Program-made: the position numbers and the translations under genes | In this document: one piece after another, positions 3,138 through 20,996 of the stretch | Numbering within the stretch: the stretch's first letter is position 1 | Layout: the number at the start of each line of letters is the position of its first letter | Notes under the pieces: model-generated | Database searches by the model: none | Told to the model about the DNA's origin: nothing | The model's input: the letters and a program-made list of their open reading frames with translations, nothing else | Origin: a virus | Lineage: Duplodnaviria > Caudoviricetes | IMG/VR virus record: IMGVR_UViG_3300021408_000080 | Span: 1-55,452 of that record | Strand: one strand, 5' to 3' | Length of the DNA stretch: 55,452 bases

Positions 3138-3685
3138 TGCGTGGCTTGGGGATCGATTGCGGTTTTCGGACCGGCTTTGGAGCACTCGGAGGCAGGAAAG
3201 CCCCTGCCTCCGGGTCCTACCACCTGGCTGGGTCGTCGGCTGAAATGGGCCAGGCCTTCGCCTCGCTCGTGCCGATCGTCAATGGCCTGATCGTTTCCCA
3301 GAAGCCTGACTTCATCGTGGTCGCCATGCCGTTCATCGGCCAGAAGGTGACGCCGGTCCAGCTTATCCCCATCATGGCGTTCCCCTGCCGCGTGCAGGAG
3401 ATCGCCGACGAACACAGCATCCCGTTCTACCGGATTGCCGAGTCTGACGCGCGCAAGGCGCTGCTCGGCTTTGTCCCCGGTGGAAGCGATGCGATCAAGA
3501 AGGCCGTTGTCTCCGGATGCCGCCAGCGCGGCTGGCCCTGCTGCGACAATCACGCGGGCGACGCGCTGTGCGTGGTCGACTTCAAGCTGAACGAGCTCGA
3601 TCCGAAGGGCGCCCATGAGCGCACCCCCCTCTTCATCAGCGCCGGCCTGGCCCGCGCGAAGCAGAAGAAGGCGATCACGGCATGA
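3137..3685 (+). CDS. RuvC-like resolvase fold protein
   Basis: GLGIDCGFRTGFG N-terminal motif; KPDFIVV; DNHAGDALCV C-terminal motif. Confidence 0.7.
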   Translation: MRGLGIDCGFRTGFGALGGRKAPASGSYHLAGSSAEMGQAFASLVPIVNGLIVSQKPDFIVVAMPFIGQKVTPVQLIPIMAFPCRVQEIADEHSIPFYRIAESDARKALLGFVPGGSDAIKKAVVSGCRQRGWPCCDNHAGDALCVVDFKLNELDPKGAHERTPLFISAGLARAKQKKAITA

Positions 3686-5046
3686 GCGAAGGGCCCAAGT
3701 TCTGGTACGTGGTCGGCTCGATCGCGGATGATGAGCACGTGGTCTTCGTGGTGCACGAGACCACGCCGGATATCTTCCGCCGGGTCGCCGCCTTCACGAA
3801 CAAGGTTCGCGCCGAAGACTATGCCGAAATGGAGAACGACTTCAGGCCTGGGCGTGGCACCGTGGACGAACTGCTCCAGGGCCGCGATGGCGACGACCAG
3901 CCCGCCGCGGCGCACGTGGCCGAGCCGAGATCCGCGCTGAGCGTTCGCCGCACCACTGTCGTGGAGACCACCCGGACCAGGATCGCGCATCAGGAAGAAG
4001 TAGGGGAGGACACACCAGAGAGCGGGGCTAGTGGCTCTCACGTGTGGGCCCTCCCCCGAGTTACTGCCGTGCCGGATCGCCCGGTTGAGCAGGTTGCCGT
4101 AGCTCCTTCGGCCTCGGCTGGCGCGATCACAACTGCCGACGCGCCCAAAAGTGCCGTTCCTGGGGGAATTATCCACAGCACTTCGCTCACCGAGAGCGAG
4201 GCCAAGGTGTTCGAGGCCCTCGTGGGCTTCGCCGCCCGCATGCACAAGCCCAGCATAGCGCAGATCGCCATCACCTCTGGCGTGCCCAACGGCAGCATCA
4301 CGCACCTGCTGCTCGCGCTCGAGCGTAAAGGCTACATCAAGAACGATGGCGTGCGCTTCGCGCCGGACTATCGCGTTATCGTCCAAGGCAAGCCCATCGT
4401 GGAAACGCCGATGGTTGCCGAGCCACCGTTGCCGAGCCCGGCGACCGCCAAGATCGAGCCCCAGGACGATCCGGTTGAAGCGCCGCTGAGCGCCGCCGAT
4501 CTGAGCGACCGCCAGCGTTCGGCGCTGATCTGCGTGAGCAGGGACGACCTGAGCGACCGCACGTTGGCGCTCGCCAGTATCGGCACGCACGAGCTTCCGA
4601 AGATCCTGCTCAGGCTGCGGGATTTCGAACTGATCGGGCTGGGCGTTGGCGGCAAGTGGCACCTGCTCCCCGACGGCGAGCGCATCGCCAATGAGATCAA
4701 GACCAAGAAGGGGCCTGGTCCGGTCGAAGCGAAGATCTCGATGCCGGTGGTTCGCCAGCCGGCGCCGGAGAAGCACAAGGACGTGTCGCTCAAGCACGAC
4801 CAAGCCGCTAAAGACGCCGTCGCCAGGTTCACGGAAACAGGCGGTGTGCGTAAATTCCACGAGGCAGATTCGGCGGCGCACTTCAACATTGCCGACTACT
4901 TAACGAGGAAGGGCCACCATGTGAGTGGCGCCAGCGCATGGAAGTCGGCGTGGATGATCGACGGAAAACGAATGGATTGGGACGCGGTGGTGTCCCTGGT
5001 GAACAAGCACCGGGTGCAAGCCGAGCTCCCGCCCCTGACATTTTGA
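3682..5046 (+). CDS. Multi-domain protein with LexA-like winged HTH
   Basis: LTESEAKVFEAL...PSIAQIAITSGV..GSITHLLLALERKGYI; possible second wHTH at LSDRQRSAL. Confidence 0.6.
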   Translation: MSEGPKFWYVVGSIADDEHVVFVVHETTPDIFRRVAAFTNKVRAEDYAEMENDFRPGRGTVDELLQGRDGDDQPAAAHVAEPRSALSVRRTTVVETTRTRIAHQEEVGEDTPESGASGSHVWALPRVTAVPDRPVEQVAVAPSASAGAITTADAPKSAVPGGIIHSTSLTESEAKVFEALVGFAARMHKPSIAQIAITSGVPNGSITHLLLALERKGYIKNDGVRFAPDYRVIVQGKPIVETPMVAEPPLPSPATAKIEPQDDPVEAPLSAADLSDRQRSALICVSRDDLSDRTLALASIGTHELPKILLRLRDFELIGLGVGGKWHLLPDGERIANEIKTKKGPGPVEAKISMPVVRQPAPEKHKDVSLKHDQAAKDAVARFTETGGVRKFHEADSAAHFNIADYLTRKGHHVSGASAWKSAWMIDGKRMDWDAVVSLVNKHRVQAELPPLTF

Positions 5047-5543
5047 GCGATCGCGATTTCGGGCGCGCGATCGTGACACAACGGAACTACCTGATTGCAT
5101 TTGCCAGGGCGAGGCTTCACCGCTCGCGCGATGATGCCGAAGACCTGGCGCAGACCACTCTTCTCAAGGCGTGGGAGCATCGGATGCAGTTCAAGCCCGG
5201 CTCCAACATGAAGGCCTGGCTCTTCACGATCCTGCGCAACGCCAATTTCGGGCAGCTGCGCCGGCTGAAGATCCACAACCCGATCTCGTCCACCGTCGAG
5301 AACAACACTGGCGAGAGCGTCGCCTACGACGTGGCCATCCCGGGCAATCAGGAAGACTCCGCCAACCTCCGGGACATCCTGGAAGCGTTCAAGCGCCTGC
5401 CGATCAATCAGATTGATAGCCTGCTGCTGCTCACGCGCGGGCACTCCTACGAGAAGGTTGCCGACAACGTCTGCGCCCCGGTAGGAACCGTGAAGAGCCG
5501 CGTCGCCCGCGCGCGCAAAGCCCTCAGGAAAGCTTGTGGATGA
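5043..5543 (+). CDS. ECF sigma-70 factor, EcfG/SigT-like
   Basis: TTG start overlapping upstream TGA; DAEDLAQTTLLKAW...FKPGSNMKAWLFTILRN (region 2) and SYEKVADNVCAPVGTVKSRVARAR (region 4). Confidence 0.9.
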   Translation: MSDRDFGRAIVTQRNYLIAFARARLHRSRDDAEDLAQTTLLKAWEHRMQFKPGSNMKAWLFTILRNANFGQLRRLKIHNPISSTVENNTGESVAYDVAIPGNQEDSANLRDILEAFKRLPINQIDSLLLLTRGHSYEKVADNVCAPVGTVKSRVARARKALRKACG

Positions 5544-5815
5544 CCGCGAAAACCCATTTGAAACGTGTGAGCTATTGCCAGTGGGCGGTTGAAGGGCCGC
5601 GGCGGGACGTCATTATCCGCCGCAACGGGCGCCGGTTCCAGGTGTTCGAGCGGGGTAAGCCGATGCTCGACGGGTTCTTCCACGAGACGTTCAGCCGCTT
5701 CTATCAGGCTGAGGCTTATGCCAGGACCCTCGCCGGCCTACCCGTCGTGTCGGTTATCCATCACGAAGAGCAATCGCTCTCGGTGCGGGCGTTCCTCGCC
5801 TCGCGGGCGTCATGA
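5540..5815 (+). CDS. Hypothetical protein
   Basis: ATGA-coupled on both sides. Confidence 0.6.
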   Translation: MTAKTHLKRVSYCQWAVEGPRRDVIIRRNGRRFQVFERGKPMLDGFFHETFSRFYQAEAYARTLAGLPVVSVIHHEEQSLSVRAFLASRAS

Positions 5816-6546
5816 GCAGGCTATCCCGGGCCGTTCAGGAGCGTCACGCCCCGAAAGAGGTCGAGGCCGACTCGCCAGAACGCAAGCGGTGGCGCGAGAT
5901 CGAGTGGTATGCGACCCCGCCATTTGCGACCCGTGCCGGCGCGGAATTGATCAGCCGCTTGAGCCCGGGCGGTATTGACGTCATCTGGGAACCAGCTTGC
6001 GGCGACGGAATCATGGCCGAGTGCCTCAAGCCTTTCTGCGACAGCGTCTTTTCCAGCGACCTTTGCCCTCAAAGCTATGGCGAGACGATCGATTTCCTGT
6101 TGGCCGAGCCGCACGAGTGCGATTGGGTGGTCTCGAATCCTCCCTTTGAGCTTGGCGCTCAGTTCATCACCCAGGGCCTGAAGATGGCGCGCATCGGCGT
6201 AGCGATGCTTTGCCGCCTGGCCTTCATCGAAGGGGCGGGGCGCTATCCCGTGCTCCACGCTGGCCGCCACCCCATGACGATCCTGGCGCCATTTATCGAG
6301 CGCGTGCCGATGCAGTTGGGCCCATGGAACCCGAAATGCAGCACGGCCACGGCCTATGCCTGGTTCATCTTCCTCAAGGAGGCGGAGCGGCCGCCGGACC
6401 AGCACTGGGCGGCGCGCGTGCACCCGATCCCGCCAGGCACGCGGGCGCGGCTTTCCTATCCGGACGATATCCGGCGCTTCTGCAAGGCAACGGGAGCGCC
6501 ATTGCTTGAGGGCGGCGATGCGGTGGACGACCGAGCAGCGGGCTGA
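5812..6546 (+). CDS. SAM-dependent amino-(N6A/N4C) DNA methyltransferase
   Basis: WYATPPFAT, IWEPACGDG (motif I), VVSNPPF (motif IV). Confidence 0.85.
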   Translation: MSRLSRAVQERHAPKEVEADSPERKRWREIEWYATPPFATRAGAELISRLSPGGIDVIWEPACGDGIMAECLKPFCDSVFSSDLCPQSYGETIDFLLAEPHECDWVVSNPPFELGAQFITQGLKMARIGVAMLCRLAFIEGAGRYPVLHAGRHPMTILAPFIERVPMQLGPWNPKCSTATAYAWFIFLKEAERPPDQHWAARVHPIPPGTRARLSYPDDIRRFCKATGAPLLEGGDAVDDRAAG

Positions 6547-7348
6547 ACTCGAGCACCGTTGGAACGTGCTCAAGCAGACGCCCCGCGTCATCAGACGGGA
6601 AATGGGGATCACCCGCGGGCAGCTGGCCGGGCGGGTAACCAAGTACACCCTTCAGTCTCAGGGCGTGCCGCGCTTCCACAACCCCGACGCGCCAGCCGTC
6701 TGGGAAGGCCGGACCAGGTTCCCGGGCCAGGTCACCAGCGAAGGCGCGGCGCTGAAGCCCGGCACCTTCCAACGGAAGCTCGGCAAGCGCGTCACCAAGG
6801 GGAAATGGAAGGGCATGCCGATCTACTCGCTGACGCTGGAAGAGCGCGCGACATGCCCCAAGGACTGCAAGCTGTGGACCGCCTGCTACGGTAACAACCT
6901 ACATTGGGCTAAGCGGATGTCTCACGGCCCTGCGCTGGAGGCGAAGATCTGGGTGGAGCTTCGCGCCCTCGCCCGCCGGCACCGGCGCACGGGCTTCGTG
7001 GTGCGTCTCCACATCCTTGGGGACTTCTGGTCGGTCGGCTATGTCGAGCTCTGGGCCGAGGCCCTGGACGCCTTCCCGGGCTTGCGGGTGTTCGGCTACA
7101 CCGCCTGGCAACCCACAACGCGCATAGGACGCGCGCTGGCGGCTTTGCGGGACCTGAGGTGGGACCGCTTCGCCATCCGGACGTCGGGCGCCACACAGGG
7201 CCCTCGCACGCTCGTGGTGAAGGATGAGCGGGGGGCAAAGCTATCCGGCGCGATCGTGTGCCCGGTCGAGACGGGCAAGACGGCCTGCTGCGGGACGTGC
7301 TCGCTGTGCTGGGCGACGACCAAGCCCATCGTGTTCATCGAGCACTGA
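6518..7348 (+). CDS. GcrA-like HTH fused to Gp88-like (radical-SAM-related) Cys-rich domain
   Basis: N-term MRWTTEQRAELEHRW...IRREMGITRGQLAGRV; then TCPKDCKLWTACY, VRLHILGDF, VFGYT, CPVETGKTACCGTCSLCW. Confidence 0.7.
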   Translation: MRWTTEQRAELEHRWNVLKQTPRVIRREMGITRGQLAGRVTKYTLQSQGVPRFHNPDAPAVWEGRTRFPGQVTSEGAALKPGTFQRKLGKRVTKGKWKGMPIYSLTLEERATCPKDCKLWTACYGNNLHWAKRMSHGPALEAKIWVELRALARRHRRTGFVVRLHILGDFWSVGYVELWAEALDAFPGLRVFGYTAWQPTTRIGRALAALRDLRWDRFAIRTSGATQGPRTLVVKDERGAKLSGAIVCPVETGKTACCGTCSLCWATTKPIVFIEH

Positions 7349-7937: not shown

Positions 7938-8020
7938 CACCCAGTTAGTACGGGAACGTACTTAGCCTTTGGTGGTAGGGTCACTCCGCCGGGTCCGCCT
8001 TAGCGGGTTGACGCGGTATC

Positions 8021-8089
8021 GGTTCCAGGGTCGGTGGGAAGGCTGCTCTCAGCTTGCCCCCCGACGGCGGCCTCCGCCGACCCGGAACC
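8021..8089 (+). other. Long stem-loop upstream of ProQ/FinO gene (structured leader or sRNA)
   Basis: GGTTCC-GGGTCGGTGG-AGGCTGC pairs with GCGGCCT-CCGCCGACCC-GGAACC. Confidence 0.55.
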
Positions 8090-8106
8090 TAACAAGGGGC
8101 GCAGCT

Positions 8107-8445
8107 ATGAAACGTCATTTCGACTGGGTTGCAATTCATCAGGCGCAGAAGGTCTTGGCCACGCTGTATCCGGAATTGTTCAGCCTGCTCAATCCCGTGC
8201 CGCTCAAAATCGGCATCAAGGACGACATCCTCGTGCGCTTCCCGGGTATCCGGCGGCACGTGCTCGGTGGGCTCCTGGGCTGGCTCACCCATCGGCGGGA
8301 CTACCTCGAACGATGCACCGAAGGCGCCACGCGCTACGGCTTTGATGGGCCGGACGGCGTGGTCACCGCGGCCGAGGCGGAGTTCGCGCTGAAGAAGTTC
8401 GTCGAGCGGGAAATCTCAAGCCTACCAAGGGTAAAAGCAGCATGA
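8107..8445 (+). CDS. proQ: ProQ/FinO-family RNA chaperone
   Basis: YPELF...PVPLKIGIKDDI...YLERCTEGATRYGFDG..GVVTAAEAEFA. Confidence 0.88.
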   Translation: MKRHFDWVAIHQAQKVLATLYPELFSLLNPVPLKIGIKDDILVRFPGIRRHVLGGLLGWLTHRRDYLERCTEGATRYGFDGPDGVVTAAEAEFALKKFVEREISSLPRVKAA

Positions 8446-8832: not shown

Positions 8833-10335
8833 ATGGCGTCTGCTAAGCCTCATTATGCTTTAGACGCAGAGCCACCATCTGAGCGAACCCTCCCCTGTAA
8901 CGTCGAGATCGAATGGGCGCTGCTCGGCGCGCTGCTGGTCGATAACCATTGGTTCGACCGGGCGGCGCTGACGCTCAGGCCCGAGGACTTCTACGACCCG
9001 CTGCATCAGCGGATGTATGCCGAAATGGTCGGGCTCTTCGCCAAGGGCATGCACGTGACGCCCTTGACGCTGAAGGCCATGCTCGAAGGCGATGCCGGCT
9101 TGGCCGAGGTCGGCGGCATCACGTATCTCTTAGGCCTCGCGCGCTCCGCATCGGTCCTGCCAAACGTCGCCGACTACATCGCGATCCTCAAGGATCTCGA
9201 ACTGCGGCGGCATCTGATCCGGATCGGCGAGGACATCACCAACCAGGCATATGCCGCACCCTATGGCGTGGCGGCTACCGAGGTCGCCGGGCGCGCCTCA
9301 GAGGCGCTGTTCCAGGCCGCGAGTGCCGGCGAGGCAAAGCCTGCCCTGTCTCTCGATAGGGTCGCAGGGGAAGTGCTCGACATGCACGAGCGCCGCTTCA
9401 ACGGCGAGCGGTTCCCGACGGTCAAGATCGGCCTGCACACAGTGGACGCCGAGATAGGCGGATTCAGGGGCACGGACCTGGTCGGGATCGCCGGGCGGAG
9501 CGGCATGGGCAAGTCGGCGCTGCTGGGCGGCATCGCCCTCGGCGCCGCGATGCGGGGCACCCCCGTGCTCGTGTTCTCCATCGAAATGGCCAACGGGCAG
9601 TGGGCCGAGCGCACGCTGTGCGACATCGACTTCTACGAAAACGGCGGCAAGGACGCGCTTGAATACCGCAAGTTCCGCAACGGCACGTTGACTGAGGGGG
9701 AGTTCGATCGCGCCGCGCGCGCCCGCCTCCGGCTCAACAATCTACCCCTTCACATCATCGACGACGACCAGCTGAACATCGAGGATCTGAGCGCGCGCGC
9801 CAGGACATGGGCGATCGGGCGCGGGCCTCTCGGCATGATCGTGGTCGACTATGCGCAGATCGTGGCCCCGACGGACCAAGGCCGAGATCGCTCCCGCGAG
9901 CAGGAGGTCAACCACATCGCCCGCGGGCTCAAGCGCTTGGCCAAGAAGCTCGGCTGGGTGGTCGTCGCCGGAATCCAGTTGCTGAACAAGGGCATGAAGG
10001 GCACGGATGCCGACCGCCGGCCGACCGCGCAGGACATCAGGGAATCGGGGGGCATCGAGAACGAGTGCGACGTGGTCTTCGCCACCTATCGCCCCGCTTG
10101 GTATCTCGAGCAGCGCAAAGCCGAGGCCAAGGCCGCGAGCCAAGCCGAGTGGGATGCCTGGCAGGCAGACCATCAGAACGCCAAGCACAAATTCGAACTG
10201 CTGAACTTCAAGCAGCGGCACGGCCGCCGGATTGATTTCGAACTGTGGTGCGACATGGGCGCATCAGCCGTCCGCGATCAACGGCCCATCGGCAACGTCA
10301 TCACCCAAGAGGAAGCGAAAGGGCTGTTCGCATGA
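8833..10335 (+). CDS. dnaB: Replicative DNA helicase DnaB-like
   Basis: N-domain NVEIEWALLGALL/PEDFYDPLHQ; Walker A AGRSGMGKS; FSIEM; IVVDYAQ; DIRESGGIENECD. Confidence 0.95.
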   Translation: MASAKPHYALDAEPPSERTLPCNVEIEWALLGALLVDNHWFDRAALTLRPEDFYDPLHQRMYAEMVGLFAKGMHVTPLTLKAMLEGDAGLAEVGGITYLLGLARSASVLPNVADYIAILKDLELRRHLIRIGEDITNQAYAAPYGVAATEVAGRASEALFQAASAGEAKPALSLDRVAGEVLDMHERRFNGERFPTVKIGLHTVDAEIGGFRGTDLVGIAGRSGMGKSALLGGIALGAAMRGTPVLVFSIEMANGQWAERTLCDIDFYENGGKDALEYRKFRNGTLTEGEFDRAARARLRLNNLPLHIIDDDQLNIEDLSARARTWAIGRGPLGMIVVDYAQIVAPTDQGRDRSREQEVNHIARGLKRLAKKLGWVVVAGIQLLNKGMKGTDADRRPTAQDIRESGGIENECDVVFATYRPAWYLEQRKAEAKAASQAEWDAWQADHQNAKHKFELLNFKQRHGRRIDFELWCDMGASAVRDQRPIGNVITQEEAKGLFA

Positions 10336-10583
10336 GTGTCGAGGCGATGACGTGGGCGTGGAAGCAGAAGGTGGGCTCTGGGCAGCAGAAGCTCGTCCTG
10401 GTGGTGTTGTCCGACTCAGCGGACCCGAGTACCGGCCTTGTCTGGCTCGATATCGACAGCCTCAAACGACGCGCTGAAATGTCAGAAGCAGCCATCAAAA
10501 CCGCCCTTCTGGCGCTAAGCATCAAAGGGTTCATCAAGCAGGAAGAAAACGGCAACTACCGTTTCATTTGGGGGGCAAAATGA
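10332..10583 (+). CDS. HTH_36-like winged-helix protein
   Basis: MSVEAMTWAWKQ...KLVLVVLSD; resembles the N-terminus of the next gene. Confidence 0.75.
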   Translation: MSVEAMTWAWKQKVGSGQQKLVLVVLSDSADPSTGLVWLDIDSLKRRAEMSEAAIKTALLALSIKGFIKQEENGNYRFIWGAK

Positions 10584-11518
10584 GCGTCGATGTCATCACC
10601 GCAGTGTGGCGCTCAGGCGTCTACGACGGCAGCAACCTGATCGTTCTGCTCGCCCTGGCTGATTGGGCCGCGCCGGACGGCACGCGGGTCTATCCAACGA
10701 TCCGGCAAATCATGGAGAAGGCGCGGCTCTCTGAGCGTGGGGCCCGAGACTGCCTCCGCAAGCTGAAAGGCGACGGGTTTCTGATCCTGGTGAAGGGTTC
10801 GGACGGCACGAGGGGTATGGCCAACGAATGGCGCCTCGACGTCGCGAAGCTATGGGCCTGTGCCGGAGAAACGGAGAAGAAATCACGGGGGCAAATTGAA
10901 GGTGACAATTATGCCACGGGGGCAAATGGCGACAGTCACGGGGGCAAATTGCAGCTGCACGGGGGCAAATTGCAACAAATCCCCCACACCCCCTATATAG
11001 ATTCAACCGTTATAAACAACCGTCATATACAACCGTCATCCGCGCCTGGCGGCGCGTCGAGAGCGAAGGCTTCGAAGCAAGGGGAAGAACCAGAGGGCTT
11101 CGCCGAGTTCTACCAAGCCTATCCAAGACACGAGGGCCGGGGGCAGGCGGAGAGGGCCTATAGGGCCGCGCGCAAGATCGTCTCGGCCGAGATCCTCCTT
11201 GAGGGCGCGGAGCGGTACGCGGCGCTCCGGAAGGGCGAGCCAGCCCAATACACCAAACATCCGGCCACCTGGTTGAACGGCAAAGGCTGGCTGGACGAGG
11301 CCCTGCCAGTCCAATCGGCGACTGTGATCCCGATCGCGCGCGCCAGCCTCTTCGACTGGGAAGAGCGGCTGCGGATCTACTACGGCTACGTCAGCGAGGA
11401 CAAAGAATACCCACTACCGAAGGGCACCTGGAACAAGAGTTGGGGCCCAGCACCGCACGAGCAAGGCCACAAGGTCCCGCTTGAAGCCTTCGCCAAGATC
11501 AAACCCAAGGTGGCGTGA
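10580..11518 (+). CDS. Phage replication initiator (wHTH plus C-terminal loader-interacting domain)
   Basis: VLLALADWA...YPTIRQI; FAEFYQAYPRHEGRGQA...KHPATWLNGKGWLDE; iterons in its linker. Confidence 0.85.
   Translation: MSVDVITAVWRSGVYDGSNLIVLLALADWAAPDGTRVYPTIRQIMEKARLSERGARDCLRKLKGDGFLILVKGSDGTRGMANEWRLDVAKLWACAGETEKKSRGQIEGDNYATGANGDSHGGKLQLHGGKLQQIPHTPYIDSTVINNRHIQPSSAPGGASRAKASKQGEEPEGFAEFYQAYPRHEGRGQAERAYRAARKIVSAEILLEGAERYAALRKGEPAQYTKHPATWLNGKGWLDEALPVQSATVIPIARASLFDWEERLRIYYGYVSEDKEYPLPKGTWNKSWGPAPHEQGHKVPLEAFAKIKPKVA
10884..11042 (+). repeat. Replication origin: four iterons plus three 13-bp AT-rich repeats
   Basis: CACGGGGGCAAAT at 10884, 10915, 10937, 10958; CAACCGT at 11004, 11017, 11030. 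Confidence 0.85.
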
Positions 11519-13885: not shown

Positions 13886-14262
13886 TCACGCGCGAGGAAC
13901 TGAAGAATTTGCACATGATCCAGACCTTGCACGGCCACGGGGACGGGATGTTCTTCTACCGCTACCGGTGCGTCGAGCATCCGCGCCTTTCCCGCCACGA
14001 CCACTACGAGAAGAGGACCAAGAGCGTGGAGAGCACGTTCATGGTCGACGGCGCCAATGTCGCGGACATCGATGCGGCGATCGAGGCGCTGAGCGTGCCG
14101 GTGGTCATAACGCCCGAAGAGCAGGCCGTGCTCGACACCCTCCCGACCGAGTGGACTGATATCCGTTCGTTCAGCGGCAAACAGCGCCTCGATCTCCTGC
14201 CGCTCGCGGACAAAGGCCTGATCGAATACAGCGGCGACCGCCAGTTCCGGCGCAGGCCGTGA
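13882..14262 (+). CDS. Hypothetical protein
   Basis: GTGA-coupled on both sides. Confidence 0.65.
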   Translation: MITREELKNLHMIQTLHGHGDGMFFYRYRCVEHPRLSRHDHYEKRTKSVESTFMVDGANVADIDAAIEALSVPVVITPEEQAVLDTLPTEWTDIRSFSGKQRLDLLPLADKGLIEYSGDRQFRRRP

Positions 14263-15119
14263 AGCTGATCCGCGTGTTTCCCCGCCGCAACAGGGCTACG
14301 CCCGATGACGCCGGAGTGCGCTTCGGCCCTCCTGGACTGTTCGATGAGGCGGACGAGGTCCATGTCTCGGTGACCTTCACCGCGGACAAGACGATCGCGG
14401 AGCGGCTGGCGGAGCAATGGCGGGCTGTGGCGCCGGTCAAGATCGGCGGCGTGGCCTACGGCGACACGAGCCTGGAGTTCATCCCCGGCCGCTACGTGAA
14501 GCCGGGTTACACGATCACCTCGCGCGGCTGTCCGCGGCGCTGCTGGTTCTGCGGCGTGTGGAAGAAGTGGCCCGAGGTCAACGCGATGCCGATCTACGAC
14601 GGATGGAACGTGCTCGATGACAACCTGCTGGCGGCTCCCGTGGAGCATGTCCATGGCGTCTTCGCGATGCTGCGCCGGCAGAAGAAGGCCGATTGGCCCG
14701 GTTGGGACGGCCGCATCGAGTTTACCGGCGGGCTCGAAGCTCTGTCGCTTCAGGACTATCAGGTCGACCTCCTCGCCAGCCTGAAGCCGCGGCCGAATAT
14801 GTTCTTCGCCTACGATCCTGGCGATGCGTTCGAAACGCTGGAGAGCGCCGCGCGCCGCCTGCTCGCCGCCGGCTTCACCACCAGGTCGCACCGCATGCGC
14901 GCCTACGTGCTGATCGGCTACCCCAAGGACACCTTCGACGAGGCCGAGAAGCGCCTTAACCAGATGATGGGGATCGGCTTCACGCCGCACGCCATGCTGT
15001 GGCTCCCGGAGACGCCGTCGCAAGAGAAGCACCGGCCGCCGCCGGAGTGGCGCGCCTTCCAACGCCAATGGGCAAGGCCGACGATCATCCATGCTGTGGA
15101 TAATGAGAAACGGGATTGA
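14259..15119 (+). CDS. Radical SAM protein
   Basis: TSRGCPRRCWFCGVW (CxxxCxxC), DDNLLA, YVLIGYPKDTFDEAEKRL. Confidence 0.88.
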   Translation: MKLIRVFPRRNRATPDDAGVRFGPPGLFDEADEVHVSVTFTADKTIAERLAEQWRAVAPVKIGGVAYGDTSLEFIPGRYVKPGYTITSRGCPRRCWFCGVWKKWPEVNAMPIYDGWNVLDDNLLAAPVEHVHGVFAMLRRQKKADWPGWDGRIEFTGGLEALSLQDYQVDLLASLKPRPNMFFAYDPGDAFETLESAARRLLAAGFTTRSHRMRAYVLIGYPKDTFDEAEKRLNQMMGIGFTPHAMLWLPETPSQEKHRPPPEWRAFQRQWARPTIIHAVDNEKRD

Positions 15120-18179: not shown

Positions 18180-18406
18180 TGACCGCGCCGCCCGTCACGG
18201 TGGTGACGACGATAGGGACAACACTAGAGTTGTTCGATCTCATGCAGGTTCTGCGCAAGATGATACCCGCAAATGATCGCGGCTGGCACATGATGGAGAT
18301 CCAGATTGCCCTGTGTCAGCCCGACGGCCCCGACGGCGCCATGCTCGAAGACGCCCTGACGATCTACATCAATCGCCATCTTGTAGCGCACCATCACGCG
18401 ATATGA
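18176..18406 (+). CDS. Hypothetical protein
   Basis: ATGA-coupled. Confidence 0.55.
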   Translation: MMTAPPVTVVTTIGTTLELFDLMQVLRKMIPANDRGWHMMEIQIALCQPDGPDGAMLEDALTIYINRHLVAHHHAI

Positions 18407-18414
18407 GGGAACCC

Positions 18415-18879
18415 ATGATGAAGCTCGGAGACGCCTTGGTCTTACTGGACAACATCGCCAAGAACGACCCCGTGCCCTGCAATGGCTGCACGGCCTGCTG
18501 CCGCGGCAACCAGGCGGTATGTCTACGCGAGGGCGATGACCCCGAGGCCTACGGCCAGAACCTCAACTGGGAGAACTGCCACGGCACGATGCAGTTGACC
18601 CTTAAGCGTCAGAAGAGCGGGGACTGCAACTTCCTCGTGCTGGGCGCATGCTCGATCTACGCCAAGCGACCGACCGTCTGCCGGCGCTTCGACTGCCGCC
18701 GAATCGTGGCCATGCTCACCCCCAGCGAGCGCAAGCAGGCGGTGCGCAATAAGCTCTTCGACCAGGAGATCATGGACGCTGGCGTTGACCGTCTGCCGAC
18801 GCTGACATTGACGCCCGAAGAGGAGCACCTGCGCGATGGCGGGCTCGGCGACATGATGCGGGATCGGGGACTGCTATGA
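18415..18879 (+). CDS. YkgJ-family (CxxCxxCC) cysteine-cluster protein
   Basis: CNGCTACC...DCNFL...CSIYAKRPTVCRRFDC. Confidence 0.85.
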   Translation: MMKLGDALVLLDNIAKNDPVPCNGCTACCRGNQAVCLREGDDPEAYGQNLNWENCHGTMQLTLKRQKSGDCNFLVLGACSIYAKRPTVCRRFDCRRIVAMLTPSERKQAVRNKLFDQEIMDAGVDRLPTLTLTPEEEHLRDGGLGDMMRDRGLL

Positions 18880-19674: not shown

Positions 19675-20115
19675 ATGAGATACGGGCTGATCGACCCGCG
19701 CACGCGGCAGTACGACGTGGTGGTGGCTGACGAACTGCCACTGTCGCTCGTCGGTCTTACCAACTCTGAGACAGATCACGGCGCTGTCGCGCCCAGGCTC
19801 ATGATCGTGGTCTACGAATACAGTCTGTTCGTCCCGCCTGAGAAGCAGAGCTATTTCGCCATCGGTCGCCAACTCTTCGGCGGCGTGGCGGTGCTTTACC
19901 GCGTCGACAAGGATGGCGAGACGATTGATTTCACATGGCCGATCGCGCCAAAGGTGCGCTGGTTCGCCGATCGCGCCGCCGTCGAGCGTGAGATCGAGGC
20001 CCGACTTCTCGACCGCCCGGTGATGTCTATTAGCAGTGGCAATGAGGTCCGTGTGTTCTGGCAGTGGCCAGACCCGCGGCCGGACATCGGCCCGATCATT
20101 AAGGGGCTAGTCTGA
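19675..20115 (+). CDS. Hypothetical protein
   Basis: Abutting ORF. Confidence 0.65.
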   Translation: MRYGLIDPRTRQYDVVVADELPLSLVGLTNSETDHGAVAPRLMIVVYEYSLFVPPEKQSYFAIGRQLFGGVAVLYRVDKDGETIDFTWPIAPKVRWFADRAAVEREIEARLLDRPVMSISSGNEVRVFWQWPDPRPDIGPIIKGLV

Positions 20116-20996
20116 TGCCCGCTGAAACCAAAATAGGCTGGACTGATGCCACGCATAATCCGATCGCCGGGTGCTCCATCGAGAGCCCTGGGTGTACAAA
20201 TTGCTATGCTCAGAGCCTCGCCGGCACGCGGCTCGCGCAGCACCCGATGTACGGTGGCACCACCAGCCCATCGAAGACGGGCCCGGTGTTCAACGGGCGG
20301 CTGACCGAGCACCCGAATCCTGACGTCTTCCTGTGGCCGATGCGCTGGAAGGGTGCGAAGAACCCGCGCCTGGGTCCGGGCAAGCGGTCCATGATCTTCG
20401 TCGCCGACATGAGCGACCTCTTCCACCCGAACCGGCCGCTTGAGACGATCGACAAGGTCGTGGACCCGTGCTTCGCCTCGCCGCACATCTGCCAGTTCCT
20501 GACCAAGCGCCCGCGTTTCATGGCCAACTACTTCGATTGCTGGCGCCCGACGTTGAAGCCTACGCCGAACTTCTGGCTCGGCTTCTCGGCCGAGGACCAA
20601 ACGCGCTTCGATGAACGCTGGCCGATCATGCGCGGCCTCGCCGAGGCGGGATGGATTGTCTTCTGCTCCTACGAGCCCGCAATCGGCCGTCTCGTGCTGC
20701 CGCCCGACTTCCTGGCCTTCAGGGAGCGCGTCTGGATCATCATCGGCGGCGAGTCCGGCCCGAAGGCGCGGGTCTACAACATGAAGTGGGGCGAGAGCAT
20801 CATCGAACGCTGCCAGGCCCAGGGAGTTGCGGTGTTCAACAAACAGGCGGGTGCGCGCCCGTATTATGGTCCGGCCGACTATTCGACGTTCGTCCTGAAT
20901 CCGGTGGATCTGAAGCACAAGAAGGGCGAGGACATGGCCGAGTGGCCTGAAGCTATGCGCGTCCGCGAGTGGCCCAAGGCGGGGATCACAGCATGA
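20115..20996 (+). CDS. DUF5131 / phage Gp37Gp68-family protein
   Basis: TKIGWTDATHNPIAGCSIESPGCTNCYA, IFVADMSDLFH, QFLTKRP, WIIIGGESGP. Confidence 0.92.
   Translation: MPAETKIGWTDATHNPIAGCSIESPGCTNCYAQSLAGTRLAQHPMYGGTTSPSKTGPVFNGRLTEHPNPDVFLWPMRWKGAKNPRLGPGKRSMIFVADMSDLFHPNRPLETIDKVVDPCFASPHICQFLTKRPRFMANYFDCWRPTLKPTPNFWLGFSAEDQTRFDERWPIMRGLAEAGWIVFCSYEPAIGRLVLPPDFLAFRERVWIIIGGESGPKARVYNMKWGESIIERCQAQGVAVFNKQAGARPYYGPADYSTFVLNPVDLKHKKGEDMAEWPEAMRVREWPKAGITA

Follow-up and report, generated by a model that had tools for sequence, protein, structure and literature searches.

The GcrA–GP88 fusion gene and its locus

The window analysed here is the complete IMG/VR virus record IMGVR_UViG_3300021408_000080, a phage genome of the class Caudoviricetes (55,452 bp, rated 96% complete, G+C 61–66%). 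Early and replication genes occupy the left third, among them a pair of overlapping genes: a methyltransferase (MTase) gene, P0002, and a gene, P0001, whose product joins a GcrA-type helix-turn-helix (HTH) domain to a domain of the GP88/DUF7227 family of viral proteins (Table 1). The two genes overlap by 29 nt (positions 6518–6546), as an earlier sequence-only reading of this DNA had stated, and the motifs quoted there are all found in the translation of the fusion: C113-x3-C117-x5-C123-Y, R163-LHILGDF-170, F192-GYT-195, and C248-P-x7-C257-C258-x2-C261-x2-C264.

The reading frame of the fusion is open from position 6356, and translation from the ATG at 6518 (MRWT...) yields 276 amino acids (aa). 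Homologues of similar length number 1,591; 85 near-full-coverage sequences out of 120 listed were aligned, and these begin MxWxxE at the same point, which backs the ATG at 6518, as do the GAGGG that precedes it by 5 nt and the start of the nearest relative described below. End-to-start overlaps join four genes in a row, namely a sigma factor (whose 3′ end overlaps the next gene at 5534), a 93-aa open reading frame (ORF), the MTase, and the fusion, and this arrangement looks like one translationally coupled operon. The nearest relative of the fusion, from a sister phage (locus L167), is 86% identical and has the same start; there the overlap with the MTase gene measures 32 nt, in the same order of sigma factor, small ORF, MTase, and fusion.

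Table 1. Features of the fusion gene, its operon, and other genes of the window named in the text
Feature	Position	Strand	Remarks
GcrA-type three-helix DNA-binding domain, residues 1–45	6518..6652	+	helices 5–17, 22–29, and 33–42 in the model
Linker, residues 46–59	6653..6694	+	
GP88/DUF7227 domain, residues 60–276 and stop codon	6695..7348	+	PF17338, phrog_2554
Three-Cys loop C113-x3-C117-x5-C123	6854..6886	+	directly after strand 101–105
R163-LHILGDF-170	7004..7027	+	end of strand 160–164
Four-Cys site C248-P249 ... C258-x2-C261-x2-C264	7259..7309	+	
Fusion gene P0001, 276 aa	6518–7348	+	GcrA-type HTH and GP88
MTase gene P0002, 244 aa	5812–6546	+	motif I WEPACGDG, motif IV SNPPF
Shine-Dalgarno-like GAGGG	6508–6512	+	5 nt upstream of ATG 6518, within the MTase gene
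Extracytoplasmic function (ECF)-type sigma factor, first of the four overlapping genes	4938..5543	+	Sigma70_r2 E 6.2e-12, Sigma70_r4_2 E 4e-5 (Pfam); phrog_1740 RNA polymerase sigma factor E 4.3e-26
93-aa ORF, overlaps both neighbours	5534..5815	+	no PHROG or Pfam match; ATGA at 5812–5815
5′-3′ exonuclease	779–2053	minus	
454-aa protein	3682–5046	+	weak LexA-type winged-helix match, residues 167–222, E 7.4e-5
ProQ/FinO-domain protein	7969–8445	+	PF04352 E 1.8e-12
DnaB-like helicase	8833–10335		left third of the window
Replication initiator	10568–11518		left third of the window
286-aa protein	14259–15119	+	GCPRRCWFC (CX3CX2C), FTGGLE; phrog_9298 'radical SAM domain protein' E 2.5e-12
CxxCxxCC putative zinc- or iron-chelating domain protein	18313–18879	+	PF03692 E 1.2e-6
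DUF5131 protein	20115–20996	+	PF07505 E 1.1e-47; C20-x6-C27-x2-C30, GGESG

The N-terminal domain

The predicted model of the N-terminus superposes on the GcrA DNA-binding domain (PDB 5yiu_A) with a root mean square deviation of 1.3 Å over 44 residues. A profile built from the 85 aligned sequences matches the same structure over positions 1–44 (E 1.9e-4), and the Pfam GcrA family (PF07750) is matched by 42 of the 85 homologues, with Myb-type domains matched by four (E ≤ 0.01). The window's own N-terminus gave no GcrA match in Pfam (first 70 aa, E ≤ 10) or in the PDB (phmmer). The GcrA likeness proposed earlier for the first ∼45 aa is borne out by the Pfam matches, the family profile, and the superposition, and we identify the N-terminus as a GcrA-type HTH at the level of family and predicted fold only.

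GcrA matches stop at about residue 45–56 of the fusion. Residues 43–58 lack regular secondary structure in the model (predicted local distance difference test score, pLDDT, lower at 84–86 in the blocks covering 41–60), and phage homologues align only from about residue 58 on, i.e., past the linker. GcrA of Caulobacter (PF07750; PDB 5yiu, 5yix, and 7ye1) carries a sigma-70-interacting domain at its C-terminus, whereas in the fusion this place is taken by GP88 (residues 60–276).

The sequence-only reading had further assigned to this domain the reading of N6-methyladenine (m6A), and here the comparison with GcrA is less favourable. Passages of the GcrA study describe methyl pockets formed by I37 with N34 and R33, and by G38 with N34 (PMC5887438). 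The fusion retains W3, W15, T32, R33, and G38 of GcrA, and replaces N34 by G, I37 by A, H41 by T, and R42 by K. Across the 85 homologues, position 34 is G in 69 sequences and N in 10, and position 37 is variable (S in 18, A in 17, D in 16, I in 14, and L in 10). Because the methyl-reading residues N34 and I37 are replaced, m6A reading cannot be inferred; because the recognition helix differs from that of GcrA, the target need not be methylated GANTC. As judged from alignment and model, the fold and the backbone-contact signature are those of GcrA, and the residues that read the methyl group are not retained.

Sequence and conservation of the GP88 domain

The remainder of the fusion passes the Pfam cut-off for GP88 (PF17338; 29.5 bits against 24.4), fails that for DUF7227 (PF23872; 15.4 bits against 27), and matches phrog_2554 over residues 61–276 (E 3.5e-37). 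Among the 85 homologues, 83 match GP88 and 75 match DUF7227 (E ≤ 0.01). NCBIfam and PADLOC gave no match to the fusion protein, and a feature search of the ESM Atlas, which holds no model of this protein, gave no usable match once its own families were excluded. The family is large: at E ≤ 1e-3 a domain-only profile of 49 sequences detects 2,683 cluster representatives, of which 1,116 remain at E ≤ 1e-10 and 756 at E ≤ 1e-30. Gp88 proteins had been described in the earlier reading as uncharacterised, and this holds: literature searches (PF17338, DUF7227, and the family names) found no paper on GP88/DUF7227 and nothing on a GcrA–GP88 fusion.

Two groups of cysteines are conserved in the domain. 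In the three-Cys loop, all 85 homologues have C117 and C123, and C113 is present in at least 90% of them; none of the three varies in the 49 domain-only sequences. All four cysteines of the C-terminal site are invariant in the 85 sequences and in seven distant members. The full set of invariant residues in the 85 sequences comprises K87, K94, E109, R110, T112, C117, C123, R133, R163, H165, G168, D169, Y175, W179, G193, F218, R221, S223, C248, P249, C258, C261, C264, F273, and H276.

These features extend to more distant relatives. The GP88 proteins of four cultured phages (RcZahn gp132, Lucius gp48, CRP-361 gp1, and 45A6 ANH49055) are 38–46% identical to the fusion over residues 58–276 and share every Cys and polar motif with it. 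The stand-alone protein gp96 of mycobacteriophage JoshKayV is 26% identical and retains R163, H165, G168, D169, F170, Y194, T195, S223, and the CP...CxxCxxC site; its three-Cys loop reads CX6CX3C, with the outer cysteines in place and the middle one shifted.

Predicted fold and relation to radical-SAM enzymes

In the model, a first strand (101–105) is followed by the Cys loop and then by alternating helices and parallel strands (160–164, 189–195, and 218–223), with the invariant polar residues located at strand ends. For a model of the domain alone (pLDDT 89.8), Foldseek against the PDB listed 50 rows. Twenty of them, all weaker than E 1e-3, are radical S-adenosylmethionine (radical-SAM) enzymes (among them QueE, PFL-AE, NifB, LAM, SuiB, anSME, viperin, BtrN, and TYW1), and about 18 are STAS domains, aligned over only ∼105 residues. 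A library of viral structures gave 18 matches at E ≤ 1e-3, some from archaeal viruses. Those that are named are all GP88 or DUF7227, except one Gp37/Gp68-like protein (E 8.2e-4), and a weak row in the same library is annotated as 'organic radical activating enzyme' (E 0.095).

Gp37/Gp68 phage proteins are presumably the DUF5131 family (PF07505). The RadicalSAM.org resource lists DUF5131 as a curated radical-SAM subgroup (Megacluster-5-2) with the motif CX6CX2C and groups it with spore photoproduct lyase in one megacluster (PMC9477430). A literature search on DUF5131 found only this listing, and the one supplementary file of PMC9477430 that was searched contains neither PF17338, PF07505, nor PF23872, and neither GP88 nor DUF5131. 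Like GP88, DUF5131 is phage-borne and has a three-Cys motif of unusual spacing, and one presumed member is a structural neighbour of GP88; unlike GP88, it has the CX6CX2C form and a GGESG motif. Spore photoproduct lyase (PDB 4fhc), a radical-SAM DNA repair enzyme with the canonical CX3CX2C motif, is 10% identical to GP88, with no sequence or profile match; compared with it, GP88 has CX3CX5C, is shorter, and adds the four-Cys C-terminal site. That site may resemble the arrangement in twitch domains, where three or four cysteines hold an extra cluster according to the same resource (PMC9477430). In the model, the 'LGD' at the end of strand 2 may occupy the place of the GGE motif.

Several results weigh against a radical-SAM assignment. 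Neither the full model nor the domain model matched a PDB structure in Foldseek at E ≤ 1e-3, and the 85-sequence profile found no PDB match for the GP88 domain. The Pfam radical-SAM family (PF04055) did not match the fusion at E ≤ 1, nor is it among the nine families matched by the 85 homologues (E ≤ 0.01). With hhalign, the GP88 alignment scored a probability of 0.3% against this phage's own CX3CX2C protein, 0.4% against its DUF5131 protein, and 0.06% against a 10-sequence DUF5131 alignment. The three-Cys variants listed for radical-SAM enzymes in the consulted parts of PMC9477430 all end in CX2C, and the GP88 spacing (CX3CX5C, or CX6CX3C in JoshKayV) lacks this ending. Because the sequence and profile tests failed and the terminal CX2C is missing, we call GP88 radical-SAM-like in fold and cysteine layout and not a shown member of the superfamily. 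The 'radical-SAM-related enzyme' of the sequence-only reading survives to this extent: the faint fold resemblance and the 3+4 Cys layout agree with it, and every sequence and profile test and the Cys spacing do not.

The failed radical-SAM tests and the non-canonical Cys spacing also fit another kind of enzyme, e.g., one that acts on DNA as a metal-dependent hydrolase, a nuclease, or a glycosylase, with zinc or an iron–sulfur (Fe–S) cluster bound by the cysteines in a structural role and without radical chemistry. Acid-base or metal catalysis would accord with the invariant R, H, D, E, and K residues, and the neighbours of GP88 genes include DNA-metabolism genes (ParB-like, DnaN, DnaB, VRR-NUC, and RusA). 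We consider this doubtful, as radical-SAM proteins are the only large recurrent enzyme group among the solved-structure matches (STAS domains, the other recurrent match, are not enzymes) and as seven cysteines in a 3+4 arrangement, with the triad after strand 1, make up the pattern of a radical-SAM enzyme with an auxiliary cluster.

This phage encodes three proteins with three-Cys motifs: the GP88 fusion, the DUF5131 protein, and the 286-aa protein with the CX3CX2C motif (Table 1). The last of these scores 23.2 bits with the Pfam Radical_SAM model, whose cut-off is 29.5.

Domain partners and genomic neighbours of GP88

The domain that precedes GP88 differs among its relatives. RcZahn gp132 (a Rhodobacter phage) has a MarR-like winged helix-turn-helix (wHTH), and the 515-aa protein of the Ruegeria phage 45A6 has several HTH_23-type modules. 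The N-terminus of Lucius gp48 (a Sphingomonas phage) has no assignment, and CRP-361 gp1 (a Roseobacter phage) has almost nothing before the GP88 domain. Pfam partners in 120 listed long forms include DUF6551/ParBc, Trans_reg_C, LexA_DNA_bind, MarR, GntR, GerE, HTH_23, and GcrA. A scan of 89 further long forms (80 of at least 300 aa among 100 newly listed, and nine of the earlier 120) found HTH_27, FaeA, MarR_2, HTH_38, HTH_5, GerE/HTH_23, GcrA (seven cases), Bac_DnaA_C, DUF6551, and one ECF sigma factor; most extensions in this set have no Pfam match. Modules of wHTH and ArsR type also occur among the fusion partners. Three proteins vary the theme: in P0433, GP88 is joined to the ECF sigma factor; in P0201, it is followed by the GcrA sigma-70-binding domain (5yix_B, E 2.3e-4) without the GcrA DNA-binding domain; and in P0211, the GcrA DNA-binding domain lies C-terminal to GP88 instead of N-terminal.

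Neighbouring genes were counted within 4 kb in the best 80 of 562 related viral loci. A gene for a ParB-like DUF6551 protein is present in 19 of the 80. In 16 it immediately precedes GP88, and 13 of these 16 GP88 genes are short (≤264 aa), without room for an HTH of their own. Phage DUF6551 proteins are reported in a preprint to bind cytidine or adenosine triphosphate (CTP or ATP) (10.1101/2025.10.10.680097). Other neighbours are GapR, DnaN, DnaB, DUF1376, DnaA_C-type HTH proteins, VRR-NUC, and RusA. The common thread in these sequences suggests recruitment of GP88 to DNA or RNA polymerase, either in cis or through a partner.

Because the family uses many tethers that can replace one another, the DNA-binding module of the fusion among them, we propose that GP88 acts on DNA or at DNA-bound complexes. 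The reading that we favour, tentatively and with somewhat less than even confidence, is that the fusion is a DNA-tethered Fe–S enzyme of radical-SAM-like fold. The GcrA-type HTH (residues 1–45) would tether the protein to DNA, and residues 60–276 would form an iron–sulfur enzyme built on a shortened β/α barrel of the radical-SAM type. In the three-Cys loop that follows strand 1 there would be a cluster with one iron left open, and in the CP...CxxCxxC site another, fully ligated, like those of twitch domains. R163, H165, D169, T195, R221, and S223, at strand ends in the model, would form the active site, and the domain would act on DNA or DNA-bound complexes early in infection. The overlapping MTase would be co-translated with it in this phage. 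What the analysis shows is the structure of the gene, the domain architecture, the distribution of the family, the pattern of conservation, and the resemblance in fold; from these we infer metal clusters, use of S-adenosylmethionine, catalysis, and DNA as the substrate. The survival of the cysteines and polar residues at 26% identity, the relatives in archaeal viruses, and the 2,683 representatives argue for an enzyme rather than a host-specific binder.

The main rival of this Fe–S enzyme is a phage transcription regulator, in which the HTH would find promoters and GP88 would serve as a non-catalytic effector or sensor (a metal or redox module, or a contact for RNA polymerase). The protein would adjust the transcription of host or phage early in infection. 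DNA-binding domains are swapped freely in the GP88 family, as they are in regulator families. The sigma factor fusion and the fusion to the GcrA sigma-binding domain fit a transcription factor equally well and so count against the enzyme; each is a single example, and both may be gene-calling joins. In the window, a sigma factor gene heads the same overlapping operon and the fusion gene lies in the early or regulatory part of the phage. However, GP88 and its polar strand-end residues are common to phages of Alphaproteobacteria, mycobacteriophages, and archaeal viruses, which face different polymerases, and stand-alone GP88 proteins without a DNA-binding part are common. The invariant residues, moreover, lie at positions where β/α enzymes have their active sites. 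On balance we regard a regulator as possible and rather unlikely, ranking it below the tethered enzyme.

The methyltransferase and its association with GP88

The MTase P0002 matches phrog_799 'DNA methyltransferase' (E 2.1e-44). In Pfam it reaches no model at cut-off, the only match being MTS at E 0.2, and its 245 detected homologues are all named hypothetical and carry no Pfam domain. In a family alignment of 55 sequences, conservation is complete at N109, P110, and P111 and at least 90% at P61, A62, G64, and G66. The family profile has 20 weak matches in the PDB (E 0.027–1.6), all of them methyltransferases or methylases by name or annotation except the uncharacterised MJ0882 and BH2331. By these sequence criteria, P0002 is an amino-methyltransferase-like protein with motifs I and IV, from a family that has no Pfam model.

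The sequence-only reading combined the two genes into one system, in which m6A set by the MTase would be recognised by the GcrA-type domain, and GP88 would add a further modification at the marked sites against restriction. The 29-nt overlap is in keeping with such a system, as is the overlapping MTase–GP88 pair of the sister phage. The pair is largely not conserved across relatives, however. Near GP88, a P0002-like MTase is found in five of the 80 loci by tblastn and in six by clustering, and it adjoins GP88 directly in three; conversely, no GP88 gene lies within 4 kb of the MTase in the best 80 of 455 P0002-like loci. An MTase of any family adjoins GP88 in 15 of the 80 loci (six MT-A70, four N6_N4, three P0002-like, one C5, and one D12), leaving 65 without one. 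Nor is any MTase fused to GP88 in the 120 listed long forms, the 89 scanned long forms, or the 85 near-length homologues.

Two counts point the other way. Direct P0002-like adjacency is confined to GcrA-type fusions (3 of 12, compared with 0 of 68; Fisher p 0.003, on small numbers). In these adjacent cases the gene order is opposite to that of the window, and in one of them (L015) genes of the same two families overlap by 28 nt. Nine of the 12 GcrA-type fusions have no adjoining MTase, and an adjoining MTase of any family shows no association with the GcrA-type N-terminus (3 of 12 against 12 of 68, p 0.69). The second count, made with hidden Markov models (HMMs), covers MTases of whatever family: 33 of 80 GP88 loci have one within 4 kb, compared with 19 of 80 control loci centred on DnaB-like helicases (p 0.028), or 32 of 65 compared with 11 of 40 at G+C ≥ 55% (p 0.04). 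This mild enrichment is an upper bound, because the HMMs derive from the GP88 set itself and the control was not host-matched. The control loci were found with a DnaB alignment, a single-protein DnaB query having given one locus, that of the sister phage. A motif-based regular-expression detector of MTases for the control recovered three of 31 known cases and was dropped.

The sister phage itself shows how loosely the MTase is held. Its sigma factor, fusion, and DnaB are 72%, 86%, and 87% identical to those of the window, whereas its MTase (L167:999–1715) is only 32% identical (residues 33–190) and has EPAANRGY in motif I in place of EPACGDG. The small ORF before it (83 aa) is unrelated to the window's 93-aa ORF. 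Because the MTase has diverged so far between flanking genes that are 72–87% identical, its slot appears exchangeable, and we conclude from these comparisons that the MTase behaves as an exchangeable cassette, which argues against a write-read-modify system. A complex prediction for the MTase and the fusion scored 0.00, the controls not being folded, and counts neither for nor against binding.

What remains of the proposed pairing is its retention in the sister phage and the adjacency confined to GcrA-type fusions; elsewhere it is rare. The MTase link is occasional and not conserved in the loci surveyed, i.e., the MTase is a facultative neighbour and not an obligate partner. Together with the replaced methyl-pocket residues N34 and I37, this makes a write-read-modify system improbable, the least likely of the explanations considered.

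Among the 80 closest P0002-like MTase loci (L086–L165), a DUF5131 gene lies within 4 kb in 11, and in one (L089) the DUF5131 ORF extends to the start of the MTase match. Because DUF5131 is found in 11 of 80 loci and GP88 in none, the P0002 family accompanies this three-Cys protein more often than it does GP88.

Early-gene neighbourhood and host

The gene immediately upstream of the sigma factor, overlapping its start, encodes a 454-aa protein whose weak LexA-type match (Table 1) is its only assignable domain. Two genes downstream of the fusion, the phage early region encodes a ProQ/FinO protein, an RNA-chaperone-type domain. The window also contains a PF03692-family protein, and a member of that family lies directly upstream of GP88 in another locus (L020).

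The host is probably an alphaproteobacterium, because the named relatives of the fusion protein come from phages of Roseobacter, Ruegeria, Rhodobacter, and Sphingomonas, and further relatives come from genomes of Parvibaculum, Thalassobaculum, Marinicauda, and Phenylobacterium. The sequence GANTC is strongly depleted in the window, with 107 sites against 278 ± 15 in 100 dinucleotide-preserving shuffles, every one of which had more. Such depletion is usual for hosts with CcrM.

Implications for the GP88/DUF7227 family

A bolder conjecture, which we consider unlikely, is that GP88/DUF7227 is an unrecognised radical-SAM branch near spore photoproduct lyase and DUF5131, with a three-Cys loop that departs from the canonical form and a second cluster resembling that of twitch domains. 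Bacterial and archaeal viruses would deliver it to chosen DNA sites, through plug-in DNA-binding modules or ParB-like partners, for radical chemistry on DNA (base modification or repair), and the GcrA-type subset would cooperate with an orphan adenine methyltransferase family.

The viral family GP88/DUF7227 is large and without known function, and it is spread over phages of Alphaproteobacteria and Actinobacteria and viruses of archaea. The 3+4 conserved cysteines, the active-site-like residues, and the near-universal tethering to DNA or the transcription machinery provide a concrete, testable hypothesis for the whole family. Bench tests are feasible, as GP88 is carried by the cultured phages RcZahn, Lucius, CRP-361, CRP-114, and 45A6. 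If GP88 is a DNA-directed Fe–S or radical enzyme, the known DNA chemistry of phages would gain a new kind of reaction; should it be a regulator, the transcription factors of phages would gain a new class, one whose DNA-reading half is taken from GcrA, the cell-cycle regulator of the host.

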